Source of the DNA: Gemmatimonadales bacterium
GTDB taxonomy: Bacteria > Gemmatimonadota > Gemmatimonadetes > Gemmatimonadales > GWC2-71-9
Assembly (NCBI GenBank): GCA_965249575.1
Contig: OZ252244.1
Location: 1,935,127 to 1,999,126 of the forward strand
Length of the DNA: 64,000 nt
Direction: 5' to 3'
Shown here: positions 4,033 through 51,954 of the stretch, one piece after another
Layout: the number at the start of each line of letters is the position of its first letter
Position numbering within the stretch: the stretch's first letter is position 1
The notes under the pieces: model-generated
The model's input: only the letters and a program-made list of their open reading frames with translations
Told to the model about the DNA's origin: nothing
Database searches by the model: none
Translations under genes and position numbers: made by a program

Positions 4033-4210
4033 GGTGTAGGGGGTAGGGGGTAGGGGGTAGGGGTTGGGGAGTAGGGAGTGGAGACTTCCGATTGACGCGC
4101 GACAGCTCAGTGGTCGCCGGGCTCGCCGATGCACTACCCCCTACCCCCTACCCCCTACCCCTACGCCCTACCCTTCACTCCCTACTCCCCAATCCCTACT
4201 CCCTATCTCT
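4033..4210. repeat. G-run arm (TAGGGGG)n / about 50-nt spacer / C-run arm (CCCCCTA)n dyad, G-quadruplex-competent on both strands
   Basis: Arm 4033-4083 is ggtgtagggggtagggggtagggggtaggggttggggagtagggagtggag. Arm 4133-4210 is cactaccccctaccccctaccccctacccctacgccctacccttcactccctactccccaatccctactccctatc. It lies between the stop of ORF 4196..4627 and the hemD start codon (4024). Confidence 0.85.
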
Positions 4211-4627
4211 CAGTTCTTCCGCGTCCGGATACCGCTCCTTCACCACAGCGATGATCTGCCGAGCACGCTCCGGGTCCTTCTTGACCGTCTCGTAGATCTC
4301 CGCGAGCCGGAGCGCCGAGTTGATGTCCACCTGCCGGGATGCCCCCCGCCTTACATGGCTTTCTAGGAGTCTGATGGTGTCGTCCATGGTGGGTCGGGTC
4401 TGGGGTGGAGGTTCGCCAACCGCACCCTCCATGAGAAGGCGGCGCGCGAAATCCTCGATTGGGGAGAACACGTATTCCAGCACGAGGTCCCATGCCCACC
4501 AACAGACTCCGAAGGCACCCGATGCCGCGAACAGGCGGGGATCGCCGCTCGCGAACCCGAGCACGCCGAACGCGACGGTCGCCACCGCGAACATCGACCG
4601 AATCACGGTGCTAATGGAGACGGACAT
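4196..4627 (-). CDS. Hypothetical membrane protein (two predicted TM helices, charged helical C-terminus)
   Basis: ORF 4196..4687. The internal ATG at 4625-4627 (MSVSISTVIRSMFAVATVAFGVLGF...) avoids overlap with the upstream TonB receptor stop. No recognisable family. Confidence 0.5.
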   Translation of the reverse strand: MSVSISTVIRSMFAVATVAFGVLGFASGDPRLFAASGAFGVCWWAWDLVLEYVFSPIEDFARRLLMEGAVGEPPPQTRPTMDDTIRLLESHVRRGASRQVDINSALRLAEIYETVKKDPERARQIIAVVKERYPDAEELRDRE

Positions 4628-4646
4628 GGCGTTAAAGAAAGGGTGG

Positions 4647-7298
4647 TTAGAAGGTCGCCGTGACCCCTCCCAAGAATCTCCGCCCAATCACTGAGCCACC
4701 GTAGAGCTGGAACCGCTCCTGGTCGAATACGTTCGTCGCGACGGCATGGATACGGACGTTGTTGTTGATCTGGTAGCCCGCGTTGACGTTGAAGATCTGG
4801 GTCGCCGTTATGTAGCCGCTGAACACGCCGGCGGCCCAGGAATACCCATCCACCAGTCGTGCTGTCACACCAAAATCGACTCCCTGGAAGCCGCTGTAGC
4901 TGAGCGAGATGTTCCCTTTGTGCTTGGGCGTGTTGGGAAGCAGCATGTCGCCGACCTGCTGGCTCTTCACGTCAAAGTCGAAGAATGTGTAGGAGCCGTC
5001 TAACTTCCACTCGTCGGTAAGCAAGAAGCCCATCCCCAGCTCTACGCCACCTTCCGTGACCTCACCCGCGTTGGTATAGGAGACGACGATTGCGCGTGAG
5101 CCGTCGGGGAGCGTCGCCACCGGCTGGCCGCTGGCGGTGAGCCCATCTGCAAGCTGCTTGTAGCCGGCCTGGAGGATCGGGATGTTCGCGCGGAGCGGGT
5201 GGCCGGATGGGAGCATGGCCGCGGCCAGCGCTGCATCGAGCTGTGAAAGGTTCGTCGGGATATCGATACCCCCGTCGGTCAGCAGGTAACGGGGGTAGTC
5301 CGGGTTCACACCGGGCAGCAGGTCGGTGATGAAGTTGTCCAGGGTGTTGATGTACAGGTCGACGCTAGCGTATACGCGCGGGGTGAGGTTCCCCTTGTAG
5401 CCGAGCTCCCATCCCGTCAGTTTCTCGACGTCTAACGCATCGTTCCCGAGCGCCAACACGGGCGTCATAGCCGAGAAATCCCAGGGAATGTCGTTCGGGA
5501 GATTCAGGCCGGCGAGCAGGGGGCCAAGCGGAGAACCGTTCGCGCTCCGGAACAGCGATTCGAGCCCCGCCTCGAGCGTCGCCTGGCGAGCGTCGGGAGC
5601 GCCAGCCGCCGCACGGAGGAAGAACTCCGAGTAGTTTGCCGACTGGAACGCGCGATTGAACGTGAAGCGGATCGAGTGGTTCTCGTTCGGGCTGAACACC
5701 AAGCCTGCCTTAGGCGAGAATTGTGCGCTGAACAGATCGCCGTTGTCGTAGCGGGCGGCCGCTACCGCCTTGAACATCGGCGAGAACCTGTACTCGACTT
5801 GGCCGTAGGCCGAGTAGTACTTGTCGTTGCGGTCGTCGTTGATCGCGTCCATCAGGGTCGCCTTGGTGTTAACCCCGTAGTTCCGGAACGACGCGCCGAG
5901 GACGACACGGCCGCGATCCTCTGCGAACGGTTGGTTTACCTGTCCCTCGACGTGGATGATGTTCGACACGTCGCTGATCGGTTGGCCGGAGGACAGGGAG
6001 ATCTGGCCGCCGCCGGATCCGGTCCGCTCGCCGCTGCGGCCCGAGTACCAGGCCATGACGTTGAACCGTTCGGCTGACCAGGCGAGCCGAGCCCACGGAC
6101 GGAAGGCCTCGACGACCTGGACCCTGCCGATCCCGGTCACGAAGATCTCGTTGTGGACTCGTGTGAGGCCGCCTTCTGCCGTGCCGATCGAGCCATCCCC
6201 AGCGTAGTAGTCGAAGCGGGCCGAGCCGTAAATGCTCTCTAGATCGTCACGCTCGCCCGTGGCACGCCCGGTGGTGGGATCGACGCTTTGGCCGTTCAAC
6301 GGTATCGGCTCGATGTTAGGCAGGACGAGGAAGTCGGTGGTGCCGGCGTACTCGCGTCGCAGATCGAGGGAATCGAAGGCCGTGCGCGAGCGCGACCAGG
6401 TGTCGCTCCGCGTGTAACCGAAGTTGACGCGATACCCGAACTGCCCGTACGCGGCCACGCCGGCGTGCCGGATGTCTCCACGGAACGTGCTCAGCTCGCC
6501 GCCCGCCAGGCTGATTTTCGTTCCCACGATCTCCCTGGCAGTTGGCGTCGTGATGTTGACCACGCCACTGAATGCGTTGGCTCCGTAAAGAGCCGAACCC
6601 GGCCCACGCACCATTTCGATCCGCCCCATGTCTTCGAGCGGGGTCGAGAGGCCGTTCCACTCCTGGTTTCCGAGGAGCGCGATCGCGAGGTCTCGCCCGT
6701 CGAGAAGGACCAGGACTCGCCGGTTGAGGGACGAGTTGAAGCCTCGTGCGTTGAGGTTGATGTCGTTGACCCCACTTTGGACGACATCGACGCCAGGGAC
6801 GGAGGCGAGTGCCAACGGCGCCTGCGCCGTCATCGACAGCGCCTGGACGTCGCGGGTATCGATCATGGTCACGGCGGCCGGAGCCTCGACCACCCGTTCG
6901 GGCGCGCGGGAAGCCGCCTGCACCACGATCTCACCGAGCGAGATCGGCTGGGATTCCAGGGCTACGTCGACGGTCTGGGTGGTCCCTGCAGTCACGGTCA
7001 CCGGAACTTCGCGTGGCTTGTATCCCAGCCACCGCACGAAGATCGCGTGTTGTCCGACCGGCACGCGCTGCAACGCGTATCTGCCGTCGGTTCCGGTCGC
7101 GGCTTCGATGCCGGTTCCAACGACCCGAACGAGGGCACCCGCCAGCGCCGCGCCGTCGACGGCGCGTGTGACGTTCCCCTCGATCTGGCCGGTCTGGAGT
7201 TGTGCCACGGCGGGTCGGCCGAAGCAGATCGTCGCGGTCAAGCAAAACGCCAGCCCAGTCCCCAGTCGCGACCGAAAGGGTGTGGAACGCTCGAGCAT
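4647..7298 (-). CDS. TonB-dependent receptor with N-terminal carboxypeptidase-regulatory-like domain
   Basis: Signal peptide LAFCLTATICFGRPAVAQ. CarboxypepD_reg-like GNVTRAVDGAALAGALVRVVGTGIEAATGTDGRYAL. Plug (DVQALSMTAQ...VVQSG...NARGF) and a long beta-barrel ending in the terminal aromatic residue ...GGVTATF. Start taken at ATG 7296-7298. Confidence 0.85.
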   Translation of the reverse strand: MLERSTPFRSRLGTGLAFCLTATICFGRPAVAQLQTGQIEGNVTRAVDGAALAGALVRVVGTGIEAATGTDGRYALQRVPVGQHAIFVRWLGYKPREVPVTVTAGTTQTVDVALESQPISLGEIVVQAASRAPERVVEAPAAVTMIDTRDVQALSMTAQAPLALASVPGVDVVQSGVNDINLNARGFNSSLNRRVLVLLDGRDLAIALLGNQEWNGLSTPLEDMGRIEMVRGPGSALYGANAFSGVVNITTPTAREIVGTKISLAGGELSTFRGDIRHAGVAAYGQFGYRVNFGYTRSDTWSRSRTAFDSLDLRREYAGTTDFLVLPNIEPIPLNGQSVDPTTGRATGERDDLESIYGSARFDYYAGDGSIGTAEGGLTRVHNEIFVTGIGRVQVVEAFRPWARLAWSAERFNVMAWYSGRSGERTGSGGGQISLSSGQPISDVSNIIHVEGQVNQPFAEDRGRVVLGASFRNYGVNTKATLMDAINDDRNDKYYSAYGQVEYRFSPMFKAVAAARYDNGDLFSAQFSPKAGLVFSPNENHSIRFTFNRAFQSANYSEFFLRAAAGAPDARQATLEAGLESLFRSANGSPLGPLLAGLNLPNDIPWDFSAMTPVLALGNDALDVEKLTGWELGYKGNLTPRVYASVDLYINTLDNFITDLLPGVNPDYPRYLLTDGGIDIPTNLSQLDAALAAAMLPSGHPLRANIPILQAGYKQLADGLTASGQPVATLPDGSRAIVVSYTNAGEVTEGGVELGMGFLLTDEWKLDGSYTFFDFDVKSQQVGDMLLPNTPKHKGNISLSYSGFQGVDFGVTARLVDGYSWAAGVFSGYITATQIFNVNAGYQINNNVRIHAVATNVFDQERFQLYGGSVIGRRFLGGVTATF

Positions 7299-7376
7299 GG
7301 TTGGATCCCTCGCTAGGGTCGATGATCGGTCAGGCCGCGCGGGGCGGCACCGCCAAGAATGCATCGTATCAAGGAT

Positions 7377-7404
7377 TTGCGGGAGGGGGGTGCCCCCTTA
7401 TAAT
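7377..7404 (+). promoter_or_regulatory. Candidate sigma70-type promoter for tRNA-Phe (TTGCGG-16 nt-TATAAT)
   Basis: TTGCGG at 7377-7382 and TATAAT at 7399-7404, about 80 nt upstream of the tRNA. The spacer contains the palindrome aggggggtgccccct. Consensus match only; promoter rules for this lineage are unknown. Confidence 0.25.
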
Positions 7405-7482
7405 TCACGGCCTTCGGCTCAACGAATTGTCTAATGCGGTCGGCCGAGGGACAACCGGCCTGCGGGCGGAGCCGCTTTTTGA

Positions 7483-7555
<73 letters not shown>

Positions 7556-7824
7556 CTGGAGTCGTCGTGGAGCCCCCGCCACATTTGGGTAGGGGGATGG
7601 CGCTAGCGGATGGATGAGTGGATGGCGTCCCGCGAAGCCGGACGACAGCACTCGAGCGCCTCCAACGCCAGTCCGGACTCCCCTCTCGATCGGTAGAGAT
7701 CTTGAATAGTCGAGTTCGACAACCGCCGCACCGCGCCTACCCACCCAGCTCAGCACGACTGGCGCCGTCCGGGGTCGCCACGTACCCGGAGCGCGGCGAG
7801 CTGCCCCAGAGCGCCGAGCCCACC

Positions 7825-8007
7825 GTCGTGTTCTCGGGCATCATGGCCTACGATCCCAATATTCAAATGGCCAAGTGCGTTACCCGTCTGTTTCGGGACG
7901 ACCAAGAACGCAAGCGCCTGGGTCGGATCGGCTACGAGGCGGCCCGCGCGATGAATTGGGATCGAACGGCCGCGCAACTCTCGAGGCTGCTCCGGGCTGC
8001 GGATTGA
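7825..8007 (+). pseudogene. Remnant of the C-terminal ~50-60 aa of a family-1 (GT4-like) glycosyltransferase
   Basis: Tail of ORF 7618..8007. The sequence ...DPNIQMAKCVTRLFRDDQERKRLGRIGYEAARAMNWDRTAAQLSRLLRAAD matches the usual GT1 C-terminus pattern (D..la.ai..ll.d......g..ar......fsW...a..l). Nothing upstream resembles the rest of the fold. Confidence 0.45.
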
Positions 8008-8196
8008 CCTGCTCGAATCTCCCGAGTCGAACCTGTACTTGGTACGACGACCGCTTGACCCGGAGCTTCACGCCGGTTTGCCGGAATCGGACACGTACTG
8101 CTGAGGGGCTTGCTCGCATGGCCAGCGGGCTGCGCCAGAGGGGACGGGACAGCGCCGAGCAATTTCGCCGAGTCCTACACGCCACCGCTTGACTCC

Positions 8197-9077
8197 CTAC
8201 CCGCTCTTCCGCACCGCCCGCCCCACGATGATCGTGATGTTGTCGGTGCCGCCGTCGTCCAGCGCGTCCTGCAGTAGGTCCTCGCACACCTGCTTCGCCA
8301 ATGTCATCGCGCCCAGCCGTTCCTTGATGCGATCGTCCGACACGTGCTTGGTGAGGCCGTCGCTGCAGAGCAGGTGGACGTTTCGCCAGTCGGATTGTAT
8401 GCGCGTCACGACGGGAGCGGTCTGCGGCCCCCCGATCGAGCTCGAGAGCGTGTGCGCCCACCGAGTCCGGAATGCTTCGGTCCGCGTAAACACCCCTTGT
8501 TCGACCAGCTCCTCGGCCATGGTCTGGTCCCGCGTGACCTGGTTCAGCTCCCCCTCACGGTACACGTAGTACCGCGAGTCGCCGACTTGCACGAGGTACA
8601 CCCAACCCCAAACGCCTATCCAAAGCGTCAGCGTGGTGGCCATCCCGCGGTATTCGGAATCCGCCTCGGCGCGCTCGACGATGGCCGAGTGGCACTGCAT
8701 GGCCGCCTCCTGCAGCGCATCGATGAAGCTGTCCTTGTCGGCGTCGGCGCTGTAGTAACACCGCATGCTCGATGCCACGTATTGGGACACCTGCTGGAGC
8801 GCGAGCCGGCTGGCTCCTCGCCCTTCTTGCTGCCCCCGACCCCGTCCGCGACCATTGCCAGTGAGGCGAGACGCTCGTCCCCCAGGGGAAGCTGATCCAG
8901 ATCGGGGAGGCTGGTCATGTAGACGTCCATTCGCTTGCGGAGCGAACAGAGGAGAAAATGGTCCTGATTGGTCTTTCGCACCTTGCCTGGGTGGGTGAGG
9001 CCATGGACGTCGATCTGATCGTCGAGTGGTCTCGGGGTAGGCGTGGGGCGGCTGGTTGTGGTCTCGAGCGATGGCAT
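8197..9077 (-). pseudogene. PP2C-family Ser/Thr phosphatase interrupted by a 1-nt frameshift near 8812
   Basis: N-terminal part lies in the frame of ORF 8628..9077 (VHGLTHPGKVRKTNQDHF...LAMVADGVGGSKKGEE). The remainder lies in the frame of ORF 8197..9186 (ASRLALQQVSQYV...TTLTLW...VQVGDSRYYV...LLCSDGLTKHV...GGTDNITIIVGR). Inserting one G in gaggag^cc restores ...KKGEEASRLAL... Confidence 0.8.
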
Positions 9078-9192
9078 GGCTGGCTTCCTGGTCAGGCACT
9101 CTCAAAACGATACGGTCGCGGGGCCAGGCCCGATAGATCGCCACTCTCAAAGCACGCAGAACAGGCGCCCCTCCCCCCGTGGGCACGATGTC

Positions 9193-9501
9193 TCAACCGG
9201 TGAGAAACCGATGCGCCCCGATGGTATGTAGCTCGACGGCCACCGGGGGTTCGTCGCATCGATCTTTGATCTCTGCCTGGAACGCCTTGAACGCGGCAGT
9301 CTCGGAGAGCGGATTGCGGCCGTCTGAGGTTTCGATGGACGCGATATGCACGAAGCTCAGGCCATCGTCGAGCTTGAACGATGCATATCGCAAGTCCTCG
9401 GGACTCTGCTCCGCCAACTCCGCAAACACCTTGCGAATGAGAGCCTCGTTTTCGTCGCCTCGGCCAGGCTTGATCTTGTAGCGGACCATGACTCGCTTCA
9501 T
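9193..9501 (-). CDS. Small ABM/Dabb-like (ferredoxin-fold) protein
   Basis: ATG at 9499-9501 gives MKRVMVRYKIKPGRGDENEALIRKVFAELAE...FVHIASIETSD...AFQAEIKDRC, about 102 aa. The pattern is typical of antibiotic-biosynthesis-monooxygenase-like domains. The family call is tentative. Confidence 0.5.
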   Translation of the reverse strand: MKRVMVRYKIKPGRGDENEALIRKVFAELAEQSPEDLRYASFKLDDGLSFVHIASIETSDGRNPLSETAAFKAFQAEIKDRCDEPPVAVELHTIGAHRFLTG

Positions 9502-9574
9502 GGGAGTGACCCTTCCATTCGTTGGGACCCGCGAGTGACCCAAATCGCCACTCGCCACTCGCAAATCGCCCATC

Positions 9575-12520
<2,946 letters not shown>

Positions 12521-12564
12521 ACGATACGGCTCGGATCATCACGCGGCCAGACGGCGGGACTCGG

Positions 12565-12790
12565 TGGGGGAGTCGTGAGTGGTGAGAGGTAGTAGTGAGA
12601 TGTGAGAAGTGAGTGGTGAGTGGGGGGCAGCAATGTTGCTTTAGCGACAGACTAGCCGAGCCGCGACTTCAGTCGCGAGAACATTGAGGTCAGGCCCGAT
12701 AGAGCGGCGATTGGCGATTCCCGATTGGTCCGCCCGCAACCCATTCGCACTCGCCAATCGCCACTCTCAAATTGCCACTCCAGTCGTCGC
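12565..12790. repeat. Composite intergenic repeat: (GTGAG)-rich arm, small hairpins, complementary C-type arm
   Basis: Arm 12565-12627 is ggggagtcgtgagtggtgagaggtagtagtgagatgtgagaagtgagtggtgagtgggggg. Tetraloop hairpin cgcgac-ttca-gtcgcg at 12662-12677. The 12-bp perfect pair ggcgattggcga (12706-12717) / tcgccaatcgcc (12751-12762). C-type arm at 12746-12781 overlaps the EamA 3' end. Confidence 0.6.
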
Positions 12791-13657
12791 CGGTCGCCGG
12801 TTCACCATGGCGATGCTGATTCCGACGAGGGCTAGACCCACGAAGACACGTAGTCCCAGTGTCTCGCCCAGTGCCAACGCTCCGAGGAACACGTCTACGA
12901 CCGTCTCGAAGATCACCCCCATGCTGACGAACGTCGCGTCGAGGCGTTTGAGGACCCAGAAGAGTCCGAGATAGCACCCGACGGTGACCACCAGTGCGAG
13001 ATAAACGACGCTGAGCGCGGCCGTCGGGGTGACGCGCACGTCCATACCATACTCGAGAGCGAGTGCCAGGATCGAGAGAAACGCCGCGCCTGACGATACC
13101 TGGAGGGCTGTGAGCCAAATAGTCGAGGTATTGCGGCCGTGGCGCCTAACCATCACCGCGCCGAACGAGGCCGAAAGGGCGGCGATGAGAACCGCGGCAA
13201 CCGGTGCTACTGCCGGCGCCCCGACCGCGCCGCTGGATCCTACGACCGTGACGACTGCAGCCACGGCCAGCAAAGTCCCGCCCAGCTTCGTCGCGGTCAA
13301 CGGCTCTTCCTTTAAGAGGAAATGCGCCACGATCGCCGTGGAGACCGGAAACGTCGCAAACAGCATCGCGGTGAGGCCAGAAGTGATGGTCTGTTGCGCC
13401 CAAAAGATCAGCGCGTAGGGCACCCCGAGCTGCGGGACGCCGACCATGAGCCAGAAACGCACCTCTCTCCAATGGGGCCTACGATTCGCCTGGAACCAGC
13501 GCGCCGCCAACAGGAGAACGCCGGCGGCGAGAACCGTGCGAGCGGCTGCAAATGTGAGGGGCGGGAGGTCTCGCAGCCCCACCCGGATGACGGCCCACGT
13601 CGTACCCCAGACGAGACCGATAGTGAGCCATACGATGTAAGGGAGAGCGCGAGACAA
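12767..13657 (-). CDS. EamA/DMT-family transporter
   Basis: 296-aa ORF with ten hydrophobic segments and two EamA-like halves (LVWGTTWAVIRVGL..., FGAVMVRRHG...). Confidence 0.8.
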   Translation of the reverse strand: MSRALPYIVWLTIGLVWGTTWAVIRVGLRDLPPLTFAAARTVLAAGVLLLAARWFQANRRPHWREVRFWLMVGVPQLGVPYALIFWAQQTITSGLTAMLFATFPVSTAIVAHFLLKEEPLTATKLGGTLLAVAAVVTVVGSSGAVGAPAVAPVAAVLIAALSASFGAVMVRRHGRNTSTIWLTALQVSSGAAFLSILALALEYGMDVRVTPTAALSVVYLALVVTVGCYLGLFWVLKRLDATFVSMGVIFETVVDVFLGALALGETLGLRVFVGLALVGISIAMVNRRPATTGVAI

Positions 13658-13746
13658 CTATCTATCGGTTCTCGTTGAGTAACTGGTGGCCGCGAGCGAG
13701 CACGGGAATCAAAGGGGGGAGGGGCGCGTCGGCAAGGATGGAGAGC

Positions 13747-13838
13747 AGTGAGAGGTGAGAGTGAGAAGCGCTATGCCGTAAGGGTGCCGGACAGGTGCCG
13801 GGCCCCATCGAGGGACCTCTCACCTCTCACCTCTCACA
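13747..13838. repeat. Imperfect hairpin with GTGAG-type arms
   Basis: Left arm agtgagaggtgagagtgagaag (13747-13768). Right arm cctctcacctctcacctctcaca (13816-13838). 14 consecutive complementary bases (gtgagaggtgagag) plus 5 more after a 1-nt bulge, with a loop of about 47 nt. Lies between the stop of 13847..14233 and the EamA start. Confidence 0.85.
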
Positions 13839-13846
13839 TTTGTATT

Positions 13847-14233
13847 TCATCGAGGGAGCTTCTTCCCCGTGACGGTTCCGTTGCCCCGGCTGCCCGAGAA
13901 GGTGCCCGCGAAGCTGCCGCCTTCGAAGGTGACCGATGTGATTATTTCCCCGCCGTCTTCGGTATCGATGGTCATCTCCACCACGTTGCCCTCGATAGCA
14001 AACCGTGTGATCGGCACGGGACTCTCACCGTCCGCGGCCATGGTTCCTTCATAGTCACCCGGCGCTCCCGTTATCTTCATTCGGCCCTCGATTGTGCGGT
14101 CGGGCTGAACCGCCTCGAAGTCGTACAGGCCTGCCAGGTCGAGAGCGGCTTCTCCCTCCGTGGCGCTTTGTGCCAGGGCGCTTCCGGTCGCGCCTACGCC
14201 AAGTGCAAGAATCAATGCTAGGGTGCGTGACAT
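13847..14233 (-). CDS. Small secreted hypothetical protein
   Basis: Signal peptide MSRTLALILALGVGATGSALAQ. 128 aa with a beta-rich Gly/Thr/Glu composition. No family recognised. Confidence 0.6.
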   Translation of the reverse strand: MSRTLALILALGVGATGSALAQSATEGEAALDLAGLYDFEAVQPDRTIEGRMKITGAPGDYEGTMAADGESPVPITRFAIEGNVVEMTIDTEDGGEIITSVTFEGGSFAGTFSGSRGNGTVTGKKLPR

Positions 14234-14315
14234 TTGGCCTCCCGGTCGAGATTGAGCTAACCACCGTACGGGTGAAGCCCCCCAAGGGTTTCGGGGCGGA
14301 CGTCACGGGAGAGGC

Positions 14316-15197
14316 CTAGGGTAGCTCTTGCAGAAACTCTTCCAGCACGCGATTGAAGCGCTTGGGGTCGTCGACAAATAGGGCGTGCCCGGCTTGCTCG
14401 AAGATCTCGACCTTCGCTTCGGGAGCCCGCTCGCGAATCTGGCGTGCGACTTCACGCGTAGCCGCAGTTCCCACGAACAACAGTGGACGGTCCACGAGGC
14501 TCAAAGCCGGCCGCCAGTCGGCGTCGCCCAACGAAAACGTGCTCGCCATCAGCGTGTAGGCGGTGGGAGTCAGCGTGGCGAGTGACGCCCGGGTGATTCG
14601 TTCGAGGTAGTGCTCCGCCTGTGGCGTCCGATACATGCTGCGCACGAACTCCTCGGTGGAGTTCCGGCGGTCGCGAAGCAAGTCCACGAGCATTGTGTCC
14701 ACGAATGCCGAGGCCCAGGCGTCGATGGACACCAGGCCGTCGACGAGCACGATGCCCGCGAGCCTATCGGTGCCATGGTGTTCGATCAGGTGGAGGATCT
14801 CGGGCACGGCCAGGGACCACCCGACAAGCACGGCGTGGCCATCGCTCACATGCTGTAGGAGTTCTTCGATGTCCTGTACTCGTCGATCGATGAAGTTGCC
14901 CTCCGCGGTTATCTCTGACCTTCCCTGTGACCGTGGGTCGAGGGCGACGACGCGGTGGGATCGAACGAAGTGGCGGAGCTGGTGCTCCCAAATGTCGGCC
15001 GGCATCGTCCAGCCAGGTACGAAAACGAGCGCGCGGCCCGACCCACCGCTCAGGTAGTGCAGCCGAACGTCATCACTCGTTGTGAACCAGCCGCTCGCGA
15101 CCCCAGGGATGCTCCCATCTTGGGAGCGCGCCGGTTGCGCTGCGGCGAGGAGGGCTAAGAACGACACTGCGGGCCGGGCGGCTAATCTGCGTGACAT
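14316..15197 (-). CDS. Secreted alpha/beta-fold hydrolase
   Basis: Signal peptide, then HYLSGGSGRALVFVPGW (oxyanion region), nucleophile elbow LVGWSLA, and C-terminal ...QAGHALFVDDP (catalytic His). Confidence 0.8.
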   Translation of the reverse strand: MSRRLAARPAVSFLALLAAAQPARSQDGSIPGVASGWFTTSDDVRLHYLSGGSGRALVFVPGWTMPADIWEHQLRHFVRSHRVVALDPRSQGRSEITAEGNFIDRRVQDIEELLQHVSDGHAVLVGWSLAVPEILHLIEHHGTDRLAGIVLVDGLVSIDAWASAFVDTMLVDLLRDRRNSTEEFVRSMYRTPQAEHYLERITRASLATLTPTAYTLMASTFSLGDADWRPALSLVDRPLLFVGTAATREVARQIRERAPEAKVEIFEQAGHALFVDDPKRFNRVLEEFLQELP

Positions 15198-15279
15198 GGA
15201 CCTATCTCCCGGGCGTTGATGGTGGGAGCGGCCTCCTTACGCATCACCCGGAGGCGCGGGGTGTGGGGCCTCCTCACTG

Positions 15280-16686: not shown

Positions 16687-16894
16687 GGGGATGGAGGATC
16701 GCGGCGGGTCAGGGTTTGGACAAGTGGGGGATAGTGAGTGGTGAGAAGTGAGGACGAGTCAGCGGCCTCTACTGCGGTTCCCAGCTATTCGATGCGAACA
16801 CGGGGGACTTACCTCCAGCGGGACCGCGGTTATTGTAAAATGGGTGCCGGTAGACGCCGGCTTCGTGAGAAGACCATCGTGGGAGTGGAGCACC

Positions 16895-17143
16895 ATGACC
16901 GTGACCGTTCGCCAACCGATCGTCGAGCGCAAAGAGCGCCGATCTCTTCCCGACCGCCCCTGTGGCGTCTGTGCCCGCGGCGTGTACGTGACGAAGATGG
17001 AAACCGACTCGTACGCCGGCCGCGGCGTACTCCAGCGGTTCGGAGTCGACTCGAGGGAAGAGGGTCTGCTGTGGCGCGTCGAGGCCTGCGACAGGTGCGG
17101 ACACGTGCAGATCTTCCGGCAGGACTGGCGGCGGGTGGGGTAG
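16895..17143 (+). CDS. Possible small zinc-ribbon protein (82 aa)
   Basis: ATG 16895 is preceded by ggagtggag. Two CxxC pairs (CGVCARG ... CDRCGH). No homology recognised, so it could be a spurious high-GC ORF. Confidence 0.35.
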   Translation: MTVTVRQPIVERKERRSLPDRPCGVCARGVYVTKMETDSYAGRGVLQRFGVDSREEGLLWRVEACDRCGHVQIFRQDWRRVG

Positions 17144-17164
17144 GGAGTGGCGAGGGCGGGCTAG

Positions 17165-17629
17165 CTATGGCGCCCCCACCGTGAAGTCGCGTGCCACCCT
17201 CCAAGAACCGTCGGGCTGTCTGCGCCAGAACGTAACGTAACGCGTGAGTGTGGTGTCCGGCGCAGCCGTTGGAGCGTCCTTCCGGCGCAAAACGCTGATA
17301 TCGTGGCCAAACTCGTACGCGAAATCGCCGCGGATCTCGAGCCCCTCGGTCACGATCTGTAGCTCGAGGTACTCCGTCTCACTCTTCTCGAAGCTTCGAG
17401 CGCTCGTCTCGACGTAGGCCTCCCGGCCGTTCAGGTCATTTCCATCGACCCGCATGCTCGTAAAATCTTCCGTGACGACGTTGCGGAGCGCGGCGGCGTC
17501 GGCCTGTTTGTACGCGACCGCCCACACCTCGTTGGTCGCGGCGATGGCGGCGCGGTCGGCGGCGTCGTCGGGTGGTGATCCCAAACAGGCTGAGACGAGT
17601 AGAGCCGTGGGGAGTACGTAGGGTCTCAT
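17165..17629 (-). CDS. SnoaL/DUF4440-like (NTF2-fold) lipoprotein
   Basis: ATG 17627-17629 gives MRPYVLPTALLVSAC (lipobox-like). Then AIAATNEVWAVAYKQADAAALRNVVTEDF...YVTFWRRQPDGSWRVARD, typical of NTF2-like DUF4440 domains. Confidence 0.65.
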   Translation of the reverse strand: MRPYVLPTALLVSACLGSPPDDAADRAAIAATNEVWAVAYKQADAAALRNVVTEDFTSMRVDGNDLNGREAYVETSARSFEKSETEYLELQIVTEGLEIRGDFAYEFGHDISVLRRKDAPTAAPDTTLTRYVTFWRRQPDGSWRVARDFTVGAP

Positions 17630-17648
17630 CTGTGTGCTGACCTCGGTT

Positions 17649-18114: not shown

Positions 18115-18124
18115 GTGTCGAGGC

Positions 18125-18562: not shown

Positions 18563-18609
18563 CCTTGGTTGGTCCCATCTGAGTCGCTTGGGCTGGGTCG
18601 GATCAGCGC

Positions 18610-37917: not shown

Positions 37918-40900
37918 ATGCCCGAGACTTTGACCGAAAAGCGAAACGAGCGGGGACAACCCCGCTCTCCGGAATCGGATGTCCAGTGGAAGCAAGCCGT
38001 GTGCGGCATCTGCCCGGCGGGATGTTGGGTGGAGGTTGGCCTTCAGAACGACGAGATAGTCGATATCCGGCAGGATACGGGTCATCCGCTCGGGATGATC
38101 TGCCGACGCGGCCGGCACGCGCCCGAGATCGTCCACTCCAAGCACCGCCTCAAGCATCCGATGAAACGCGTTGGTCTCAAGGGATCGCACGATTTCGAGA
38201 AGATCTCATGGGACGAGGCCTACGAGCACATTGTCGAGCGGCTGGAAACCATCAAGAGTGAGTCGGGTCCCGAAGCCGTCGCTATCTACACCGGCCGCGG
38301 AGCCTTTGAGCTCTCGCTGTGTGACATGTTCCAGCCGGCGGGGGTCGAAGTTTCTTCGGCCTCGAATGTGCTGTTCCCGTTCGGCTCCCCGAACACGATG
38401 GGTGTGGGCGCGTTGTGCTACGTCTCATTCGCCATGATCGCGCCGCACGTGACCCTGGGCCGCATGCTCGTCAACATGTTCACGGATATCGAGAACGCGG
38501 AGCTTCTGGTGGTGTGGGGCGCCAATCCCGCGACCGACTCTCCGCCGCTCGACATGCATCGTCTCGAGGCGGCGGCGAAACGGGGTGCCGAGATCTTCGT
38601 CATCGATCCACGCCGAACCGAGACCGCAACGCGCACGAACGGGCAGTGGATCCCGCTTCGTCCGGGGACGGATGCTGCGCTGGCGCTGAGCATGCTCGAG
38701 GTCATGATCGATGAGGAGCTGTATGACGAGCCGTTCGCCGAACAATGGTGTCACGGCTTTGGTGAGCTGCAGAACTACGTACAGCACTTCCGGCCGGAAG
38801 TGGCCGAGGGCATTACGGGGGTGCCTGCCGATACGATCCGGACGCTGGCGCGTCGAATCTGCCGTGCCACGGGTGCGTGCCCCGTCATGTACACGGGACT
38901 CGAGTATTCTAACAGCGGAATCCAGTCCATCAGAGCGGTACTCACATTGTTTGCGCTTGCCGGCCAGCTCGATGTTCCCGGAGGCATCGGTCTCTCGATG
39001 CGGGGAACACACTTCCCCATCAACCGCTCCAGCCATCAGAGCAACCCCGATTTGAATCTCGCCGTCGCCCGTCAAAAGTTTCCCCTCTACAGCCACTACC
39101 GAGGGGAGTCACACGCCTCCGGGCTTGTGAACTCCGTGCTCGAGGGAGATCCGTACCGTATTCGTGGGCTCATAGTGCACGGAGCGTCGCTGCTCACGTC
39201 GTGGCCGCAGACGGCCGTGTGGCGGGACGTGCTGTCGAAACTCGACTTTCTCGTGTGCATCGATCGCCAGCTCACCGCCGATTCCGCCTATGCGGATATC
39301 GTATTGCCGGCCACTACGATGTTCGAGATCGATTCCTACATGGTGTACGGGCCGATATTCCGCCTGCGCGAGAAGCTGATCGAGCCGGTTGGCGAAGCCC
39401 GCAACGATTACCTGATCATGGCGGAGTTGGCGCGGCGTCTCGGGTACGGCGATCTGTACCCGCAGACCGAAGAGGCAATGATCCGCAACGCCCTGGACGG
39501 TTCGGGCTATTCGCTCGAGGACGTGAAGAAAGCCGGCGGATGGGTGAAGCTGCAAACACCGATGACGCAGTACAAGAAGTGGGAAAAGGGCGGGCTCCGG
39601 GAGGACGGGCAACCCGGCTTCGACACGCCGAGCGGGAAGTTCGAGATTTGGTCCTCGACGCTCGAGGATTACGGGTACGAGCCACTGCCCAAATACGTGG
39701 AGCCCACCGAAGGCCCGTTGGGGAGCCCACAGGTCGCCGAGGCCTTCCCGTTGGTGTTCAACTCAGGCGCTCGGCCACACACCGATTTTCGATCGCAGCA
39801 CCACGGCATCGAGGGGCTGACAAAGGACAACCCGGAGCCCACCGTTGAGTTGAACACGCGCGATGCCGCCGAGCGCGGTATTACCGCGGGCGATCTCGTC
39901 GAGGTGCGCACACCGAGGGGAGCGGTCTCGTTTCGGGCGAGAGTGACTGACGACATCGTACAGGGCGCCGTGGAGTGCAACATGGGTGGCGGGACGCCGG
40001 TGGGGCCGAAAGCGTGGCGGGAATGGAACGTCAATGAGCTAACCGACCTCTCGAATCGCGACGAGATCTCGGGCTTCCCGGTGTACAAGGCGTTGCTGTG
40101 TGACGTCGTGCGCAAGGAGGCCGGCACGCCGCAGGCCCGACGCGCTTCAGCCAAGGCCGCCGAGGCGTGTGGTCCCGTACCGCTCCAGACGGCGAGCCCG
40201 GGCAAGAAACCGCGCCGCCGGATCTACCTCGACAACAACTCGACGACGCAAGTCGCTGACGAGGTACGGGAGGCAATGCAGCCCTTCCTCGATGCGACGC
40301 ATGGGAACCCCTCGAGCATCCACTCGGTTGGGCGGGAAGCCCGGGAGGGAGTGGAGAAGGCGCGCCGGCAGGTCGCGGAGCTCATGAACTGCCGTCCCCG
40401 TCGAATCCTCTTTACCGGTGGTGGCTCCGAGTCGGACAACCTGGCAATCAAGGGGGTTGCCTTCGCGGGCCGCGAAAAGGGACGGCACATCGTGACGAGT
40501 GCCATAGAGCATCCCGCGGTGCTTCAAACCTGCAGGTTCCTCGAGCGGATGGGCTACGAGGTTACGTACCTCGACGTTGATCGGCAGGGGCTCATTAGTG
40601 CCGAGCAACTGGATGAGGCCATTCGAGACGACACGATCCTAGTATCGCTGATGATGGCAAATAACGAGGTCGGAACCATTCTTCCGATCAAGGAGCTCTG
40701 TACGACTGCACGCGCCAAACAGGTCCCTTTCCACACCGACGCGGTCCAGGCCGTCGGGAAAGTCCGGGTCGACGTGCAAGAGCTGGACGTGGATCTGCTG
40801 AGTCTGTCGGGCCACAAGTTCCACGCACCGAAGGGTATCGGCGCGCTGTATATGAGAAAGGGAGTCGAAATCGAGCCGCTGATACACGGCGGAAAGCAGG

Positions 40901-41373
40901 AAAGCGGCCTGCGAGCGGGCACGGAGAACGTTCCGGCCATCGTTGGGTTGGGGATGGCGGCGGAGTTGGCCGGCCGTTCTCTGCGAGAGTCCGAAGGAAT
41001 GGGGAAACTGCGGGACAAGCTCGAAGCGGGCATCCGTGCGCTCATCCCTGCGGCTGAGTTAAACGGACACCCAGACGACCGGCTGCCCAACACGCTGAAC
41101 ATGACGCTTCCCGGATTGCGCGGGGAATCACTGGTCGTGGCCCTGGACCAGCACGGCATCTCGCTCTCCTCGGGATCGGCCTGCAAGTCCGGCTCACCGG
41201 ATCCCACGCACGTTTTGATGGCGATGAGCAGGACGGCGGAGGAGGCGCATTGCGCCGTGCGTTTCTCGCTGTCGCACGGTACGACTGCGAGCGACATCGA
41301 CGAAACGCTATCGATGGTCGGGCGCTTGCTCCAAGAGATGGAAACGACGGTTCGATTCCTACCGTGCAAGTAA
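37918..41373 (+). CDS. Fusion protein: cytoplasmic molybdopterin (Mo/W-bisPGD) oxidoreductase + NifS/IscS-type cysteine desulfurase (1151 aa)
   Basis: ATG 37918 (MPETLTEKRN). [4Fe-4S] motif VCGICPAGCW...GMIC. MopB core and C-terminal barrel ending FPVYKALLCDVVRKE (40119). A 34-aa linker AGTPQARRASAKAAEACGPVPLQTASPGKKPRRR (40120-40221) has no in-frame start codon. Then IYLDNNSTT..., PLP Lys in SLSGHKF and active Cys in SSGSACKSG. TAA at 41371. Confidence 0.8.
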   Translation: MPETLTEKRNERGQPRSPESDVQWKQAVCGICPAGCWVEVGLQNDEIVDIRQDTGHPLGMICRRGRHAPEIVHSKHRLKHPMKRVGLKGSHDFEKISWDEAYEHIVERLETIKSESGPEAVAIYTGRGAFELSLCDMFQPAGVEVSSASNVLFPFGSPNTMGVGALCYVSFAMIAPHVTLGRMLVNMFTDIENAELLVVWGANPATDSPPLDMHRLEAAAKRGAEIFVIDPRRTETATRTNGQWIPLRPGTDAALALSMLEVMIDEELYDEPFAEQWCHGFGELQNYVQHFRPEVAEGITGVPADTIRTLARRICRATGACPVMYTGLEYSNSGIQSIRAVLTLFALAGQLDVPGGIGLSMRGTHFPINRSSHQSNPDLNLAVARQKFPLYSHYRGESHASGLVNSVLEGDPYRIRGLIVHGASLLTSWPQTAVWRDVLSKLDFLVCIDRQLTADSAYADIVLPATTMFEIDSYMVYGPIFRLREKLIEPVGEARNDYLIMAELARRLGYGDLYPQTEEAMIRNALDGSGYSLEDVKKAGGWVKLQTPMTQYKKWEKGGLREDGQPGFDTPSGKFEIWSSTLEDYGYEPLPKYVEPTEGPLGSPQVAEAFPLVFNSGARPHTDFRSQHHGIEGLTKDNPEPTVELNTRDAAERGITAGDLVEVRTPRGAVSFRARVTDDIVQGAVECNMGGGTPVGPKAWREWNVNELTDLSNRDEISGFPVYKALLCDVVRKEAGTPQARRASAKAAEACGPVPLQTASPGKKPRRRIYLDNNSTTQVADEVREAMQPFLDATHGNPSSIHSVGREAREGVEKARRQVAELMNCRPRRILFTGGGSESDNLAIKGVAFAGREKGRHIVTSAIEHPAVLQTCRFLERMGYEVTYLDVDRQGLISAEQLDEAIRDDTILVSLMMANNEVGTILPIKELCTTARAKQVPFHTDAVQAVGKVRVDVQELDVDLLSLSGHKFHAPKGIGALYMRKGVEIEPLIHGGKQESGLRAGTENVPAIVGLGMAAELAGRSLRESEGMGKLRDKLEAGIRALIPAAELNGHPDDRLPNTLNMTLPGLRGESLVVALDQHGISLSSGSACKSGSPDPTHVLMAMSRTAEEAHCAVRFSLSHGTTASDIDETLSMVGRLLQEMETTVRFLPCK

Positions 41374-50505: not shown

Positions 50506-51867
50506 ATGCTAGAAAGACGGTTCGCGTCACTAATTCCCATCGTGGCGCTGGTTCTTGGCGTGCTCGTAACCACTCCGGCGCTGTCCCAGTTCCCACCCGG
50601 TAGGGAGGGCAGCTCCAACCTGACGATCGTGTCGCACCTGCCGCTCGACGGCGTGGCGTTCAGCACGTCGGACATCGAGGTTGAACAAGAGTTGTCGCGC
50701 CCATTCGTCTACGTGGACAAACGGCTCATTCCGTCGGGTTTCGATGTGATCAGTATCAAGGACCCCTCGAAACCCGAGATCATCTACTCGTGGCGGATCG
50801 AAGATCCAGAGCTGCATCAGGGATCCGGGTCTCTGGCGCCGACATACCTGAAGAGCAGCGGGCGATACTACTTGTTCAATGGCTACGAGTTCAGAAGAGG
50901 CGGACCGGACGCCGACCTGGCCGCGACGGTACATGATGTCACCAGCCTGCCCGATACCTCTGGCGTCAGGCTGATCGCTCGGATACGTCTTCCCGAAGCG
51001 CCGGGCGGGTTTCATGAGACGTTCTCATACAAGCACTCGAACGGGCAGGCGTTGGTCTTCGCGGCGCCACAAATCAGCTTCGCCTACATCTACGATATCG
51101 ATCGAATCGCCGCTGGAGGCCCGGATCAGGGGCTCGTCGCAAAGATCGAGGTGCCAGAGTCCGACATGAATCGCGGCTGGCATGACTTCTATGTCGGCTA
51201 CGATCCGGCCACTCGTCAGGACAGGATGTTCGGCGCGGGCGGCAAGGGGTATTACGTATTCGACGTCAGCAACCTCCAAGAGCCTAGGCTCCTCACTTCC
51301 GTGACTGGCGCCGCTGGCGTGCCTCGAGGGCACACCTTCACGCCGACGCCGGACGGGAGGTACGCGTTCTCCATCTCCGAGCCGACCTATCAGTATGCCC
51401 CGATGCGCGTGTTCGATCTGAAGCCGGGTCTGGACGGTGAAGTGAAAAACATCAGTCGCCCCGTGGGTGCGTGGTCCCCGGACTGGCGAGGAGCCGTTCA
51501 CTACTTCGAGGTGCGCTGGCCCTACGTCTTCGTGGCTGGCCAGAGTGACGCGTTGCAAGTCATCAACGTCATGGATGCTACGAATCCCTACACGGTGGCC
51601 TACTACGACACGAAGCAAGGCCCCTACCTCCATGGTGTCGACTTCCGGACCGGGGGCAGGTCAACGAATAGCGTATACGACGGTCTGTGGGGCATCGACG
51701 TGCGTAACGCCGACGGGCTGATCGTGGTGAGTGATTTGAATACTGGGTTCTGGGCGTTTCGCATGGATGGATTCAGTGGGTGGGATGGACACGACTGGGG
51801 TATGCCAAACCAGTCGAGCGCACAGGATTGGGACAAGGGGCCGGACGGCGCCCCGAAAGTCAGTTGA
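50506..51867 (+). CDS. LVIVD-repeat beta-propeller protein, secreted
   Basis: ATG 50506. Signal IPIVALVLGVLVTTPALSQ. Repeated ...G.DV.V...PYVFVAG..., ...GLIVVSDLNTGFWAF... motifs characteristic of LVIVD repeats. Confidence 0.6.
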   Translation: MLERRFASLIPIVALVLGVLVTTPALSQFPPGREGSSNLTIVSHLPLDGVAFSTSDIEVEQELSRPFVYVDKRLIPSGFDVISIKDPSKPEIIYSWRIEDPELHQGSGSLAPTYLKSSGRYYLFNGYEFRRGGPDADLAATVHDVTSLPDTSGVRLIARIRLPEAPGGFHETFSYKHSNGQALVFAAPQISFAYIYDIDRIAAGGPDQGLVAKIEVPESDMNRGWHDFYVGYDPATRQDRMFGAGGKGYYVFDVSNLQEPRLLTSVTGAAGVPRGHTFTPTPDGRYAFSISEPTYQYAPMRVFDLKPGLDGEVKNISRPVGAWSPDWRGAVHYFEVRWPYVFVAGQSDALQVINVMDATNPYTVAYYDTKQGPYLHGVDFRTGGRSTNSVYDGLWGIDVRNADGLIVVSDLNTGFWAFRMDGFSGWDGHDWGMPNQSSAQDWDKGPDGAPKVS

Positions 51868-51872
51868 AGATT

Positions 51873-51954
51873 GTGGGGTAGACGATAGGGCTAGGGTGTA
51901 GGGAATACCGTTGGCAGCTGATAACCGAGCTCCCTACTTCCTAATCCTACCCCG
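51873..51954. repeat. Imperfect hairpin with TAGGG-type arms between convergent genes
   Basis: Left arm gtggggtagacgatagggctagggtgtagggaat (51873-51906). Right arm ctccctacttcctaatcctaccccg (51930-51954). Outer stem ggggtag/ctacccc and inner stem gtaggga/tccctac. Lies between the LVIVD stop (51867) and the proline-racemase-family stop (51986). Confidence 0.7.

Follow-up and report, generated by a model that had tools for sequence, protein, structure and literature searches.

The 64,000-nt stretch analysed here (the window) corresponds to bases 1935127-1999126 of the single-contig genome of a Gemmatimonadales bacterium (contig OZ252244.1 of assembly GCA_965249575.1; 3,859,289 bp, about 63% G+C). 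Short G-rich tracts lie between its genes, and a sequence-only reading of the window had described ten such loci, most of them with a complementary C-rich tract nearby, as inverted repeats built from a restricted low-complexity vocabulary. We are confident that these loci are intergenic heptanucleotide tandem arrays, that is, long simple sequence repeats (SSRs) of the kind represented by the short tandemly repeated repetitive (STRR) sequences of cyanobacteria and by the Xanthomonas heptamers, and that some 100-150 such arrays, falling into five or six unit families, are present genome-wide. An array begins at a gene end, most often at or within the stop codon, with its G-rich, C-poor strand directed outwards. 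Gene positions and ends were taken from our own crude codon-score caller (codon log-odds trained on long open reading frames, ORFs), which returned 3515 genes and 87% coding DNA, with 12.7% of the genome non-coding; confirmation of its calls by Pfam is limited to 12 of the 20 window ORFs scanned. The array-neighbouring genes with a Pfam family include hemD and genes of the EamA, MatE, M28 peptidase, short-chain dehydrogenase and proline racemase families. The Pfam content of the window, including a TonB-dependent receptor with a carboxypeptidase-regulatory domain and Hanks kinases, is not at odds with Gemmatimonadota.

The period of seven was determined with a unit-free scan, in which a strict tract has 18 of 21 positions matching at a given lag and a looser tract 15 of 21. 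Genome-wide, 37 strict tracts were found at lag 7, compared to 0, 4, 3 and 0 at the control lags 8, 10, 11 and 13. Thirty-four of the 37 are intergenic although non-coding DNA is so small a part of the genome. Looser thresholds gave 95 lag-7 tracts (82 intergenic) versus 11-14 for the control periods; in the window, 8 lag-7 tracts with 15/21 matches were found versus 1-2 for each of the control periods 5, 8, 10, 11 and 13. Tandem Repeats Finder (TRF) was run on the whole genome. Period 7 leads with 15 rows at scores of at least 60 (11 rows for period 21 and 10 for period 18) and with 7 rows at scores of at least 80, where any other period has at most 3. The units reported by TRF in the window are GTAGGGG (5.9 copies) and CTACCCC (10.4 copies) at locus 1, TCGCCAC at locus 2, GAGTGGT, GGCGATT and a 14-mer made of two heptamers at locus 3, ACCTCTC at locus 4 and AGTGAGG at locus 9. 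By autocorrelation, segments 1a, 1b, 2, 3a, 3b, 4b, 8a, 9c, 10a and 10b (numbered after the loci of Table 1) do best at lag 7, and segments 4a, 5, 6a, 6b, 7, 8b, 9a and 9b at some other lag. Strand-asymmetric tracts are present where the sequence-only reading had placed them, loci 6 and 7 being weak and unconfirmed as arrays; what had gone unseen is the tandem period of 7 nt.

Table 1. Heptamer arrays and related tracts of the window (positions in the window; strand as listed by the analysis).
Feature	Position	Strand	Repeat	Context
Locus 1, G-arm	4026-4081	+	about 6 units of GTAGGGG	start codon of hemD (3254-4024, minus) 8 nt away
Locus 1, C-arm	4125-4207	-	about 10 units, CTACCCC on the plus strand	overlaps the stop codon of ORF 4196-4627 (minus), whose sense strand is the G-rich strand
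Locus 2	9537-9577	-	single array, GGCGAKT family (TCGCCAC on the plus strand)	within or at the beginning of a doubtful ORF
Locus 3, outer G-arm	12568-12630	+	about 8 degenerate GTGAGNG units	
Locus 3, inner G-arm	12706-12728	+	GGCGATT, 3.3 copies	same-family partner of 12748-12780
Locus 3, C-arm	12748-12780	-	ACTCGCC/AATCGCC	crosses the stop codon of the minus-strand EamA transporter gene (12767-13657)
Locus 4, G-arm	13747-13768	+	GTGAGAG units, one of them 6 nt	
Locus 4, C-arm	13808-13847	-	ACCTCTC, 3.3 copies	8 nt from the stop codon of ORF 13847-14233 (minus)
Locus 5	16724-16762	+	single degenerate GTGAG-type tract, weak 7-nt period	start of the minus-strand MatE gene 37 nt away
Locus 6	17135-17181		unconfirmed: no 7-nt period, no excess folding energy	within a 1032-bp stretch missing from other strains
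Locus 7	20544-20567		unconfirmed as an array; lag-7 identity 0.29	
Extra G-arm	20620-20663	+	CAGGTGC family	divergent intergenic region, about 60 nt past locus 7; overlooked by the sequence-only reading
Extra partner arm	20709-20740	-	GGACCTG/GAACCCG on the plus strand	pairs with 20620-20663
Locus 8, G-arm	25527-25569	+	degenerate GTGAGNN type	
Locus 8, C-arm	25605-25652	-	degenerate, no clear 7-nt period	overlaps the stop codon of ORF 25646-27097 (minus)
Locus 9	30232-30282	+	separate, sequence-conserved dispersed element, GTGAGGAGGCCC..CCCCACC..AGTGAGGAGTGAGGAG	starts 1 nt past the stop codon of ORF 29001-30230 (plus)
Locus 10, G-arm	51873-51906	+	TAGGG-type units	5 nt past the stop codon of ORF 50506-51867 (plus)
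Locus 10, C-arm	51930-51954	-		stop codon of the minus-strand proline racemase gene (51986-53119) 31 nt away; convergent gene pair

The main canonical units of the genome correspond to GTGAGTG, GAGGAGT, GTAGGGG, GCCAGGT/CAGGTGT, AGGGGTT and GGCGAGT, and the degenerate units of the ten loci can be summarised as GTAGGGG, GTGAGNG, GGCGAKT and CAGGTGY. Although the TRF rows hold 114 different canonical 7-mers, five or six main families stand out. With about 50 GTGAGTG units in a perfect run, the array at genome 1764943-1765296 is the longest. The sequence-only reading had held that the arms are not copies of one another, and hence not of the type of repetitive extragenic palindromic (REP) sequences or MITEs (miniature inverted-repeat transposable elements). 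This is upheld in so far as the arms are tandem repeats with no single consensus; it needs amending in that they fall into a handful of unit families and that locus 9 belongs to a family conserved in sequence. In place of a restricted vocabulary, a fixed period of 7 combined with a strand rule is the better description, the C-poor strand leaving the gene and the G-poor strand entering it.

The composition of the units bears on two explanations. G-quadruplexes have been put forward for the GGGAATC and GGGGA(C/T)T repeats, and in the part of the report available to us their formation is shown in vitro for related units (PMC4692102). The required pattern of at least four tracts of at least three G fits 22 of the 109 intergenic arrays (15/21 matches) and is confined to the GTAGGGG family, as at locus 1. 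The other 87 arrays cannot form a quadruplex, which is thus not general here, and the commonest unit, GTGAGTG, follows the same placement rules without any G-run; we consider this explanation very improbable. Alternatively, the arrays might serve as multi-site docking platforms, where a protein with a 7-nt footprint attaches to single-stranded RNA or DNA; it could be of the cold-shock-domain, S1 or another type. The fixed period, the freedom of the unit sequence within a grammar and the placement beside start and stop codons would all suit such a platform. Binding of this sort is proposed in the accessible text on TAACTGA repeats (PMC4679880), and the available part of a preprint on Nostoc heptamers states that deleting the repeats changed reporter activity (bioRxiv 10.1101/2022.06.06.494920). 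However, five or six unrelated units are present in this genome and others in each relative, so that either many proteins would be needed or none that reads the sequence. No candidate protein was found, none having been searched for, and we hold a docking role to be quite improbable.

Placement at gene ends was analysed for the oriented set, namely the 95 of the 109 intergenic tracts that have a clear G-versus-C skew (49 G-type and 46 C-type). In these arrays the G-rich strand reads away from the adjacent gene. The nearer gene lies on the left of G-type arrays (39:10) and on the right of C-type arrays (36:10), with median gaps of 2 and 4.5 nt respectively. The observed positions were compared to 200 random placements with random orientation within the same intergenic regions. 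With the G-rich strand as sense, 47 of the 95 arrays lay no more than 10 nt from a stop codon (3.3 expected); with the C-rich strand as sense, 12 of the 95 lay equally close to a start codon (3.4 expected), a count that is possibly inflated because a G-poor array holds no start codon for the gene caller to pick. The opposite orientations were found 2 times at stop codons (2.7 expected) and once at start codons (3.0 expected), again among the 95. The same polarity is seen in the 71 arrays with no partner, where 44 G-sense and 5 C-sense arrays follow a stop codon and 11 C-sense and 0 G-sense arrays precede a start codon. It is also seen family by family, the ratios being 20:4 for CAGGTGN, 55:10 for GTGAGNN, 10:1 for GTAGGGG and 16:2 for GGCGANT. 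The statement that the loci lie between genes, often exactly at stop codons, is corroborated in the window, where arms 1b, 3b, 4b, 8b, 9a and 10a overlap a stop codon or lie at most 8 nt away. Intergenic regions between convergent genes are enriched in arrays (33 of 109, versus 14.5% of intergenic bases) and those between divergent genes are depleted (10 of 109, versus 28.7%). The arrays do not delimit gene cassettes, since only 1 gene, with 0.39 expected, has both a C-arm to its left and a G-arm to its right.

The stop codon often belongs to the array, as in GGGG TAG GGGTAGGGG or in TAGGTGT at the head of a CAGGTGT array, and TAG is over-used at the array-followed genes (28 TAG, 26 TGA and 2 TAA; genome-wide 1138, 1934 and 443). 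Stop codons supplied by the unit are nevertheless not the sole cause of the polarity. CAGGTGN, which is stop-free in the G orientation, still abuts stop codons 12:1 in G-sense, so that the supply of stop codons is not the whole reason. Nor are the arrays the extreme of a general G-over-C skew behind genes, since the skew past stop codons that have no array is only -0.004 to +0.008. No stop codon has a C, and each of the three start codons has a G. Ribosomes would therefore be halted in every frame by a C-poor strand behind a gene, and a G-poor leader cannot start them. This gives the orientation rule an attractive translational logic, but one that is not sufficient by itself, because the array pairs of a tRNA cluster and those bracketing PF05635 genes in relatives, both described below, keep the same order of G-arm and C-arm.

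A rule that ties orientation to leaving and entering transcripts, whatever the unit, could also reflect directional Rho signals, the C-rich strand of an antisense or incoming transcript acting as a Rho loading site. In a variant of this idea, G-rich RNA past the stop codon, where ribosomes leave, would favour RNA:DNA hybrids (R-loops) and hence slippage. Both forms draw on the known properties of Rho sites and R-loops. They would fit the start of the arrays where translation ends, the enrichment between convergent genes, and the slightly higher codon-score density of genes with an array behind them (0.211 vs 0.188, p 0.0014). Two genes with a Rho RNA-binding domain are present, at genome 2374258 and 1215454, with open frames of 429 and 439 aa. 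On the other side, the lack of a general G-over-C skew past stop codons, the length of the arrays (mostly 28-60 nt, short for a Rho site) and the sequestration of the C-arm by the G-arm that is to be expected in pairs all speak against them, and we give little credence to the Rho form and as little to the R-loop form.

Arrays of opposite skew tend to come in pairs. Within 400 nt, the order G then C was found in 7, 12 and 18 cases at three thresholds and the order C then G in 0, and the control periods yielded 0-1 opposite-skew pairs of any kind. Both arm types share an intergenic region in 12 cases, compared to about 1.1 expected for 49 G-type and 46 C-type arrays placed independently in the 2002 regions of at least 30 nt, and the G..C pairs are thus real units. 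Since the reverse complement of a G..C pair is again a G..C pair, a transcript coming from either side meets the G-arm first. This order is kept in the spacers of a cluster of four tRNA genes on the minus strand (Arg-ccg, Pro-cgg, Arg-acg and Val-gac; genome 2414555-2415038), although translation plays no part there; the arrangement could be mistaken for one pair enclosing two tRNA genes, and really consists of two local heptamer pairs in the spacers of the cluster. The spacers of the 18 detected pairs vary from 6 to 296 nt and have different sequences, so that the conserved internal sequence of a MITE is lacking.

The folding of the loci was compared to that of 100 dinucleotide shuffles as RNA energy on both strands. 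Folding beats the shuffles on both strands at loci 1, 3, 4, 8 and 10 (z -1.9 to -5.7), with values of -4.1/-3.0 at locus 1, -4.4/-5.7 at locus 4, -2.5/-2.0 at locus 8 and -1.9/-2.5 at locus 10. No excess was obtained at locus 6 (z +0.2/-1.3) or at locus 9 (z -0.3/+0.1). The complementarity of the arms within a locus, and the comparison with shuffles suggested along with it, thus hold for five of the seven paired loci and fail for these two. At locus 3 the outer arm is not the true partner: according to the TRF units, the C-arm 12748-12780 pairs with the inner G-arm 12706-12728, which has the same unit.

From these observations, we lean towards the view that the heptamer arrays are cis-acting boundary structures of gene ends. 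Strand slippage would add and remove whole 7-nt units, and two arrays could pair where, as is often the case, a second one of that unit family lies inverted at a distance of a few tens to hundreds of bases. A transcript leaving the gene and reaching the second arm would then fold into a long hairpin around the spacer. Such a hairpin may hinder 3'-to-5' exonucleases, or the read-through of RNA polymerase into the neighbouring gene, in the manner of the REP sequences and bacterial interspersed mosaic elements (BIMEs) of enterobacteria, and it would do so without RNase III, which is seemingly missing here. Independently of pairing, the G-poor leader strand, free of ATG, GTG and TTG, would keep start codons and Shine-Dalgarno-like words out of the region before a gene, and the C-poor strand behind a gene would put stop codons in all three frames. 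The functional part of this view, an RNase III-independent hairpin barrier at gene ends, is a tentative suggestion drawn from the analysis of the arrays, and on balance a doubtful one. REP sequences and BIMEs are extragenic, lie at 3' gene ends or within operons, often as inverted pairs, and form hairpins that shield the upstream mRNA. REPs have one imperfect-palindrome consensus and are spread by a Y1 transposase, the REP-associated tyrosine transposase (RAYT). They are the closest analogue of how the pairs might work, with the differences that no consensus exists here, that the arms are tandem 7-mers and that no match to the Y1 transposase (RAYT, PF01797) was found in this genome at E values up to 0.01.

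Several results weigh against the boundary-structure view. Only in 4 of the 18 pairs does no other C-arm score better with the G-arm than the cognate one. The summed score of cognate arms is higher than in permuted pairings (288 vs 219, p about 0.001), but this is because both arms of a pair mostly come from one unit family; arms of other loci in that family match equally well, and a co-evolution of arms specific to each locus was rejected. Four of the 18 detected pairs join different unit families, at least two of these four being mis-pairings by the detector (locus 3 of the window and the tRNA cluster at genome 2414644). The RNA of the sense strand is the more stable one in 5 of the 14 co-directional pairs, so that a preference for the sense strand through G-U pairs was discarded as well, and no partner was detected for 71 of the 95 oriented arrays. 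Taken with the poor cognate matching, these figures do not bear out the selection for secondary structure that the sequence-only reading had inferred. The terminator-like hairpins it had considered fare no better, as a T-run of at least 4 near the end of the C-arm was found in only 1 of the 18 pairs. In window 3000-22999, 12 terminator-like sites (hairpin plus U) were found versus 10.8 in shuffles, and this lack of an excess of canonical terminators speaks in favour of the boundary view; none of the sites is at an array, and the arrays were dismissed as canonical intrinsic terminators. Also unfavourable are the dependence of all placements on home-made gene ends, the possible inflation at start codons in particular, and the lack of conservation: runs of three GTGAGTG units, one mismatch being allowed, number 106 in this genome, whereas 16 genomes of the order gave one and the 24 genomes of other genera of the family gave none (G014 included in these tallies), so that single arrays are not conserved.

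RNase III belongs to the same list. RNase III cuts such stems in other bacteria. In this genome, no match was found to its domains PF14622 and PF00636 or to the double-stranded RNA-binding domain PF00035, and the signature motif of RNase III as generally known is absent from the six frames. Among 41 genomes of the order (G014 included), PF14622 matches in one (G038, on a small contig), while the same search was positive in 8 control genomes. RNase III thus seems to be missing from this lineage, and processing by this enzyme, as in the intervening sequences of rRNA, was set aside.

The turnover of the arrays was followed in contigs from four runs of other samples (X5, X6, X7 and X8), which represent a strain about 99% identical (for example, 11 differences over 1086 bases in one contig) and contain at least 12 insertions or deletions among those listed over 20 kb (28 in all). 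Seven nucleotides are missing at 4134 (arm 1b) in run X7, 7 nt at 13815 (arm 4b) in runs X5 and X7, and 7 nt at 20642 together with 8 nt at 20633, in the CAGGTGC array, in both X6 and X8; at 4040-4071 (arm 1a), the other strains' contigs are broken. The contigs argue against the period-7 arrays being absent from independent assemblies, and they show in part that arrays gain and lose whole 7-nt units on a very short time scale, as slippage predicts. The alternative of a local slippage mechanism, raised by the sequence-only reading, is thus substantiated at three arrays by differences of exactly one unit. Slippage would then be the generator of the arrays, and the partner arm presumably arises by inverted duplication or is kept by selection. 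No relatives of hemD were found at an intermediate distance, the best being 46% identical in genome contigs and 45% in metagenome contigs.

These data are also compatible with a non-adaptive origin, in which the replication machinery slips most on heptamers, arrays persist where, and as, their orientation is harmless, partners come about by template switching, and there is no function. A polymerase-slippage idea for heptamers is cited in the accessible part of PMC4692102. A C-poor strand behind the stop codon would make stop loss or read-through cheap and a G-poor strand before the start codon gives no false starts. The frequent membership of the stop codon in the array as one of its units, with TAG over-used, is in line with this origin. 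The difference in unit number between near-identical strains, the lack of conservation of GTGAGTG arrays in the other 24 genera and the flat outcome of the arm-matching and sense-strand tests agree with it. So does the patchy distribution in sampled relatives, where 304 kb of G008 hold 15 period-7 tracts (units GGGAAGC/GGGGAAC, in G..C pairs) and 380 kb of G020 hold 18 (unit GGGGACG), 375 kb of G031 hold 0, and the 5 tracts in 278 kb of G005 are GC-rich and noise-like. However, the 14-fold excess right at stop codons exceeds mere tolerance, the arms co-occur about tenfold above independent placement, and the G..C order is kept where translation is absent, in the tRNA-cluster spacers, and around the PF05635 genes of relatives, whose stop codon is followed by a C-arm in the sense strand (13:0). 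The loci are moreover strongly clustered on the chromosome (84 loci in 100-kb bins, index of dispersion 3.9, p about 2e-15). We regard the non-adaptive origin as unlikely, and rate it no lower because the tests of arm matching, strand preference and conservation were all flat.

The contigs of the other strains also differ from the window by larger segments. Those of all four samples join 16814 to 17847, so that window 16815-17846, 1032 bp with a DUF4440/SnoaL-like gene, is missing. An X5 contig runs from 4586 to 7335 through about 108 other bases, in place of window 4587-7334 and without the TonB-dependent receptor gene, and the contigs of X6 and X8 join 8778 to 13458, leaving out window 8779-13457. 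Window 9574-11047 is a region of about 1.5 kb with no called gene, although ORFs of 311 and 147 aa are open there; the 311-aa ORF has no Pfam match, and the cover by contigs of other strains is low or nil.

The order of the arms may alternatively be a property of an element. Intervening sequences of 23S rRNA consist of a long stem enclosing a loop that may hold an ORF for a PF05635 four-helix-bundle protein. The module of G-arm, loop and C-arm could be an extra-ribosomal cousin of such sequences, whose full form carries an Avd-like PF05635 gene in the loop and whose stem would be made and remade from 7-nt units. The gene-end pairs that have no ORF would be its derivatives, and the G..C order would be built into the element and not set by the neighbouring genes. 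PF05635 is likened to the Avd protein of diversity-generating retroelements in the part of PMC10053308 available to us. Our literature searches found no paper linking PF05635 genes to heptamer repeats. PF05635 matches are present in 34 of the 41 genomes of the order (G014 included); two were found in this genome (2463918 and 1790078) and none in the window. The gene at 1790078-1790386 is bracketed by a 38-nt inverted repeat with the top score of 3514 genes, only 5 of which score at least 17. For the relatives, one locus per genome was taken and L045 of G014 and two loci with short flanks were left out, which gave 27. In 19 of these 27, an inverted repeat scoring at least 17 brackets the PF05635 gene. 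Tandem tracts likewise lie on both sides in 19 of 27 (period 7 in 13, period 8 in 5 and period 9 in 1), with the G-arm upstream and the C-arm downstream in 13 cases and the reverse in 0. The C-rich arm thus follows the stop codon in the sense strand, opposite to ordinary genes, which indicates that the order is set by the hairpin module and not by the gene. In 152 kb of the relatives' PF05635 loci, 29 of 50 period-7 tracts are found no further than about 300 nt from a PF05635 gene.

When 15,157 intergenic frame pieces were compared to a PF05635 profile of the lineage, the spacer of the pair 467783/468135 came out best. The first 24 residues of this spacer can be aligned with the N-terminus of the PF05635 copy of the genome itself, a score reached by 0 of 500 shuffles. 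As the match is not significant (E 0.35, no Pfam match), it remains a hint and was not accepted as a remnant of the gene. The element explanation is weakened further by the window loops, none of which holds a PF05635 ORF, by the differing sequences of the pair loops, in which nothing looks copied, and by the absence of a linked transposase and of any Y1 transposase in the genome. Moreover, G008, whose genome is 97% complete, has arrays and 0 PF05635 matches, and G031 has 8 matches with no period-7 tract in 375 kb (G020 has 6 and G005 has 0). Only 1 of the 20 loci scanned adjoins 23S rRNA, and an Rfam scan of the window found one tRNA only. The relatives' stems around PF05635 genes resemble the 23S intervening sequences in being paired arms, here G..C tandem arrays; the window loops, unlike them, hold no PF05635 gene, are not in rRNA and occur where RNase III was not found. 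PF05635 genes in relatives are thus mostly wrapped in such arms, yet the arms occur without them. We judge improbable both the element itself and the descent of the ORF-less gene-end pairs from it. If it were true, the STRR, Xanthomonas and Bacteroidetes heptamer repeats would be ORF-less remains or satellites of such an element.

Two observations concern one of the relatives. In L034 (G038:C92), the PF05635 gene at 1501-2075 starts in or beside a 23S rRNA gene, at its 3' end (model positions 2595-2925). G038 is also the only relative with an RNase III match.

Heptamer repeats were first noticed in cyanobacteria decades ago and were later found to be over-represented in many bacteria. The STRR heptamers of heterocystous cyanobacteria such as Calothrix PCC 7601 are tandem and intergenic, with several families per genome. 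Their units are AT-richer, in low-GC genomes, and the available description gives neither a polarity rule nor inverted pairing. Among the closest known systems are the GGGAATC repeats of Xanthomonas campestris and X. axonopodis and, in Nostoc PCC 7120, those with the unit GGGGA(C/T)T (Rehm et al. 2015, PMC4692102). As far as the accessible text of that report goes, they share with the arrays described here the G-rich 7-nt tandem units, the genome-wide occurrence and the over-representation outside genes, and in Xanthomonas also the adjacency to the 5' neighbouring ORF whatever its orientation, the rarity between divergent genes, a length that varies between relatives and the lack of an established function. 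Xanthomonas has 70-75 convergent inverted pairs per genome (same part of PMC4692102), compared to the 18 G..C pairs within 400 nt found here. All five features of the STRR/Xanthomonas type are thus present: 7-nt tandem units, a period-7 intergenic excess, convergent pairs, adjacency to the 5' ORF and variation in unit number. The present genome differs from both in its five or six families, most of them not capable of forming quadruplexes, in belonging to Gemmatimonadota, in one perfect array of about 50 units and in that RNase III was not found.

The TAACTGA direct repeats of Beggiatoaceae, Cyanobacteria and Bacteroidetes (MacGregor 2015, PMC4679880) are likewise intergenic heptamers a few nucleotides from coding borders, for which the available part of the report suspects a post-transcriptional role. 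They are described there as one fixed unit in 2-6 copies, mostly just upstream of start codons, with one inverted case in 170 sets, whereas the present arrays lie mostly after stop codons and many are paired. In the upstream region of hmw1A of Haemophilus influenzae, the unit number of a heptanucleotide SSR changes by slippage, according to the accessible portions of PMC12721329 and PMC8262952. That SSR is a contingency locus in the promoter or 5' untranslated region of a surface-protein gene; the arrays found here mostly abut the stop codons of ordinary genes, the window neighbours being hemD, EamA, MatE, peptidase, dehydrogenase and proline racemase genes, and phase variation is not indicated. 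Literature searches returned no paper on heptamer arrays in Gemmatimonadota. The class as such is already in print, as far as the available parts of PMC4692102, PMC4679880 and bioRxiv 10.1101/2022.06.06.494920 show, and this genome is a further, well-quantified case of it. It provides clean rules, namely a start at the stop codon, a C-poor strand outwards, pairs in the order G then C whatever the unit, and a unit number that is polymorphic between strains. A lineage seemingly without RNase III removes one popular explanation for such stems, and the link to PF05635 was tested in both directions, the genes being mostly wrapped in arms and the arms being independent of the genes. The value of the genome is that of a well-controlled case for a class-wide study and not that of a new system.

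Locus 9 represents a different, dispersed repeat. Its family consists of nested inverted blocks, AGTGAGGAG and AGTAAGGAG, with CCCCACC-type words. The word GTGAGGAG is present in 79 intergenic loci, and GAGTGAGGAGTGAG occurs 12 times, always outside genes, versus 0.0 expected. The sites include genome 519451, 1218863, 1737644, 1745610, 1790022 and 1796446 and are densest at 1.2-1.8 Mb. The same family makes up the arms around the PF05635 gene at genome 1790078.

The cumulative GC skew has its minimum at window position 5066 or so (genome 1,940,192) and its maximum near genome 5,673, and the gene-strand bias flips accordingly. From the skew and the switch in gene strand, the window probably spans the putative region of the replication origin. 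Four long, near-perfect GTGAGTG arrays of about 13 to 50 units, at genome 253996-254161, 951487-951648, 1372572-1372664 and 1764943-1765296, are all G-rich on the plus strand and lie in the replichore where, by GC skew, the plus strand is the lagging strand. Finally, an ORF of 1114 aa at window 38029-41373 (plus strand) combines molybdopterin oxidoreductase, molybdopterin-binding and class-V aminotransferase domains, and is either an unusual fusion or the product of a missed stop codon or frameshift.

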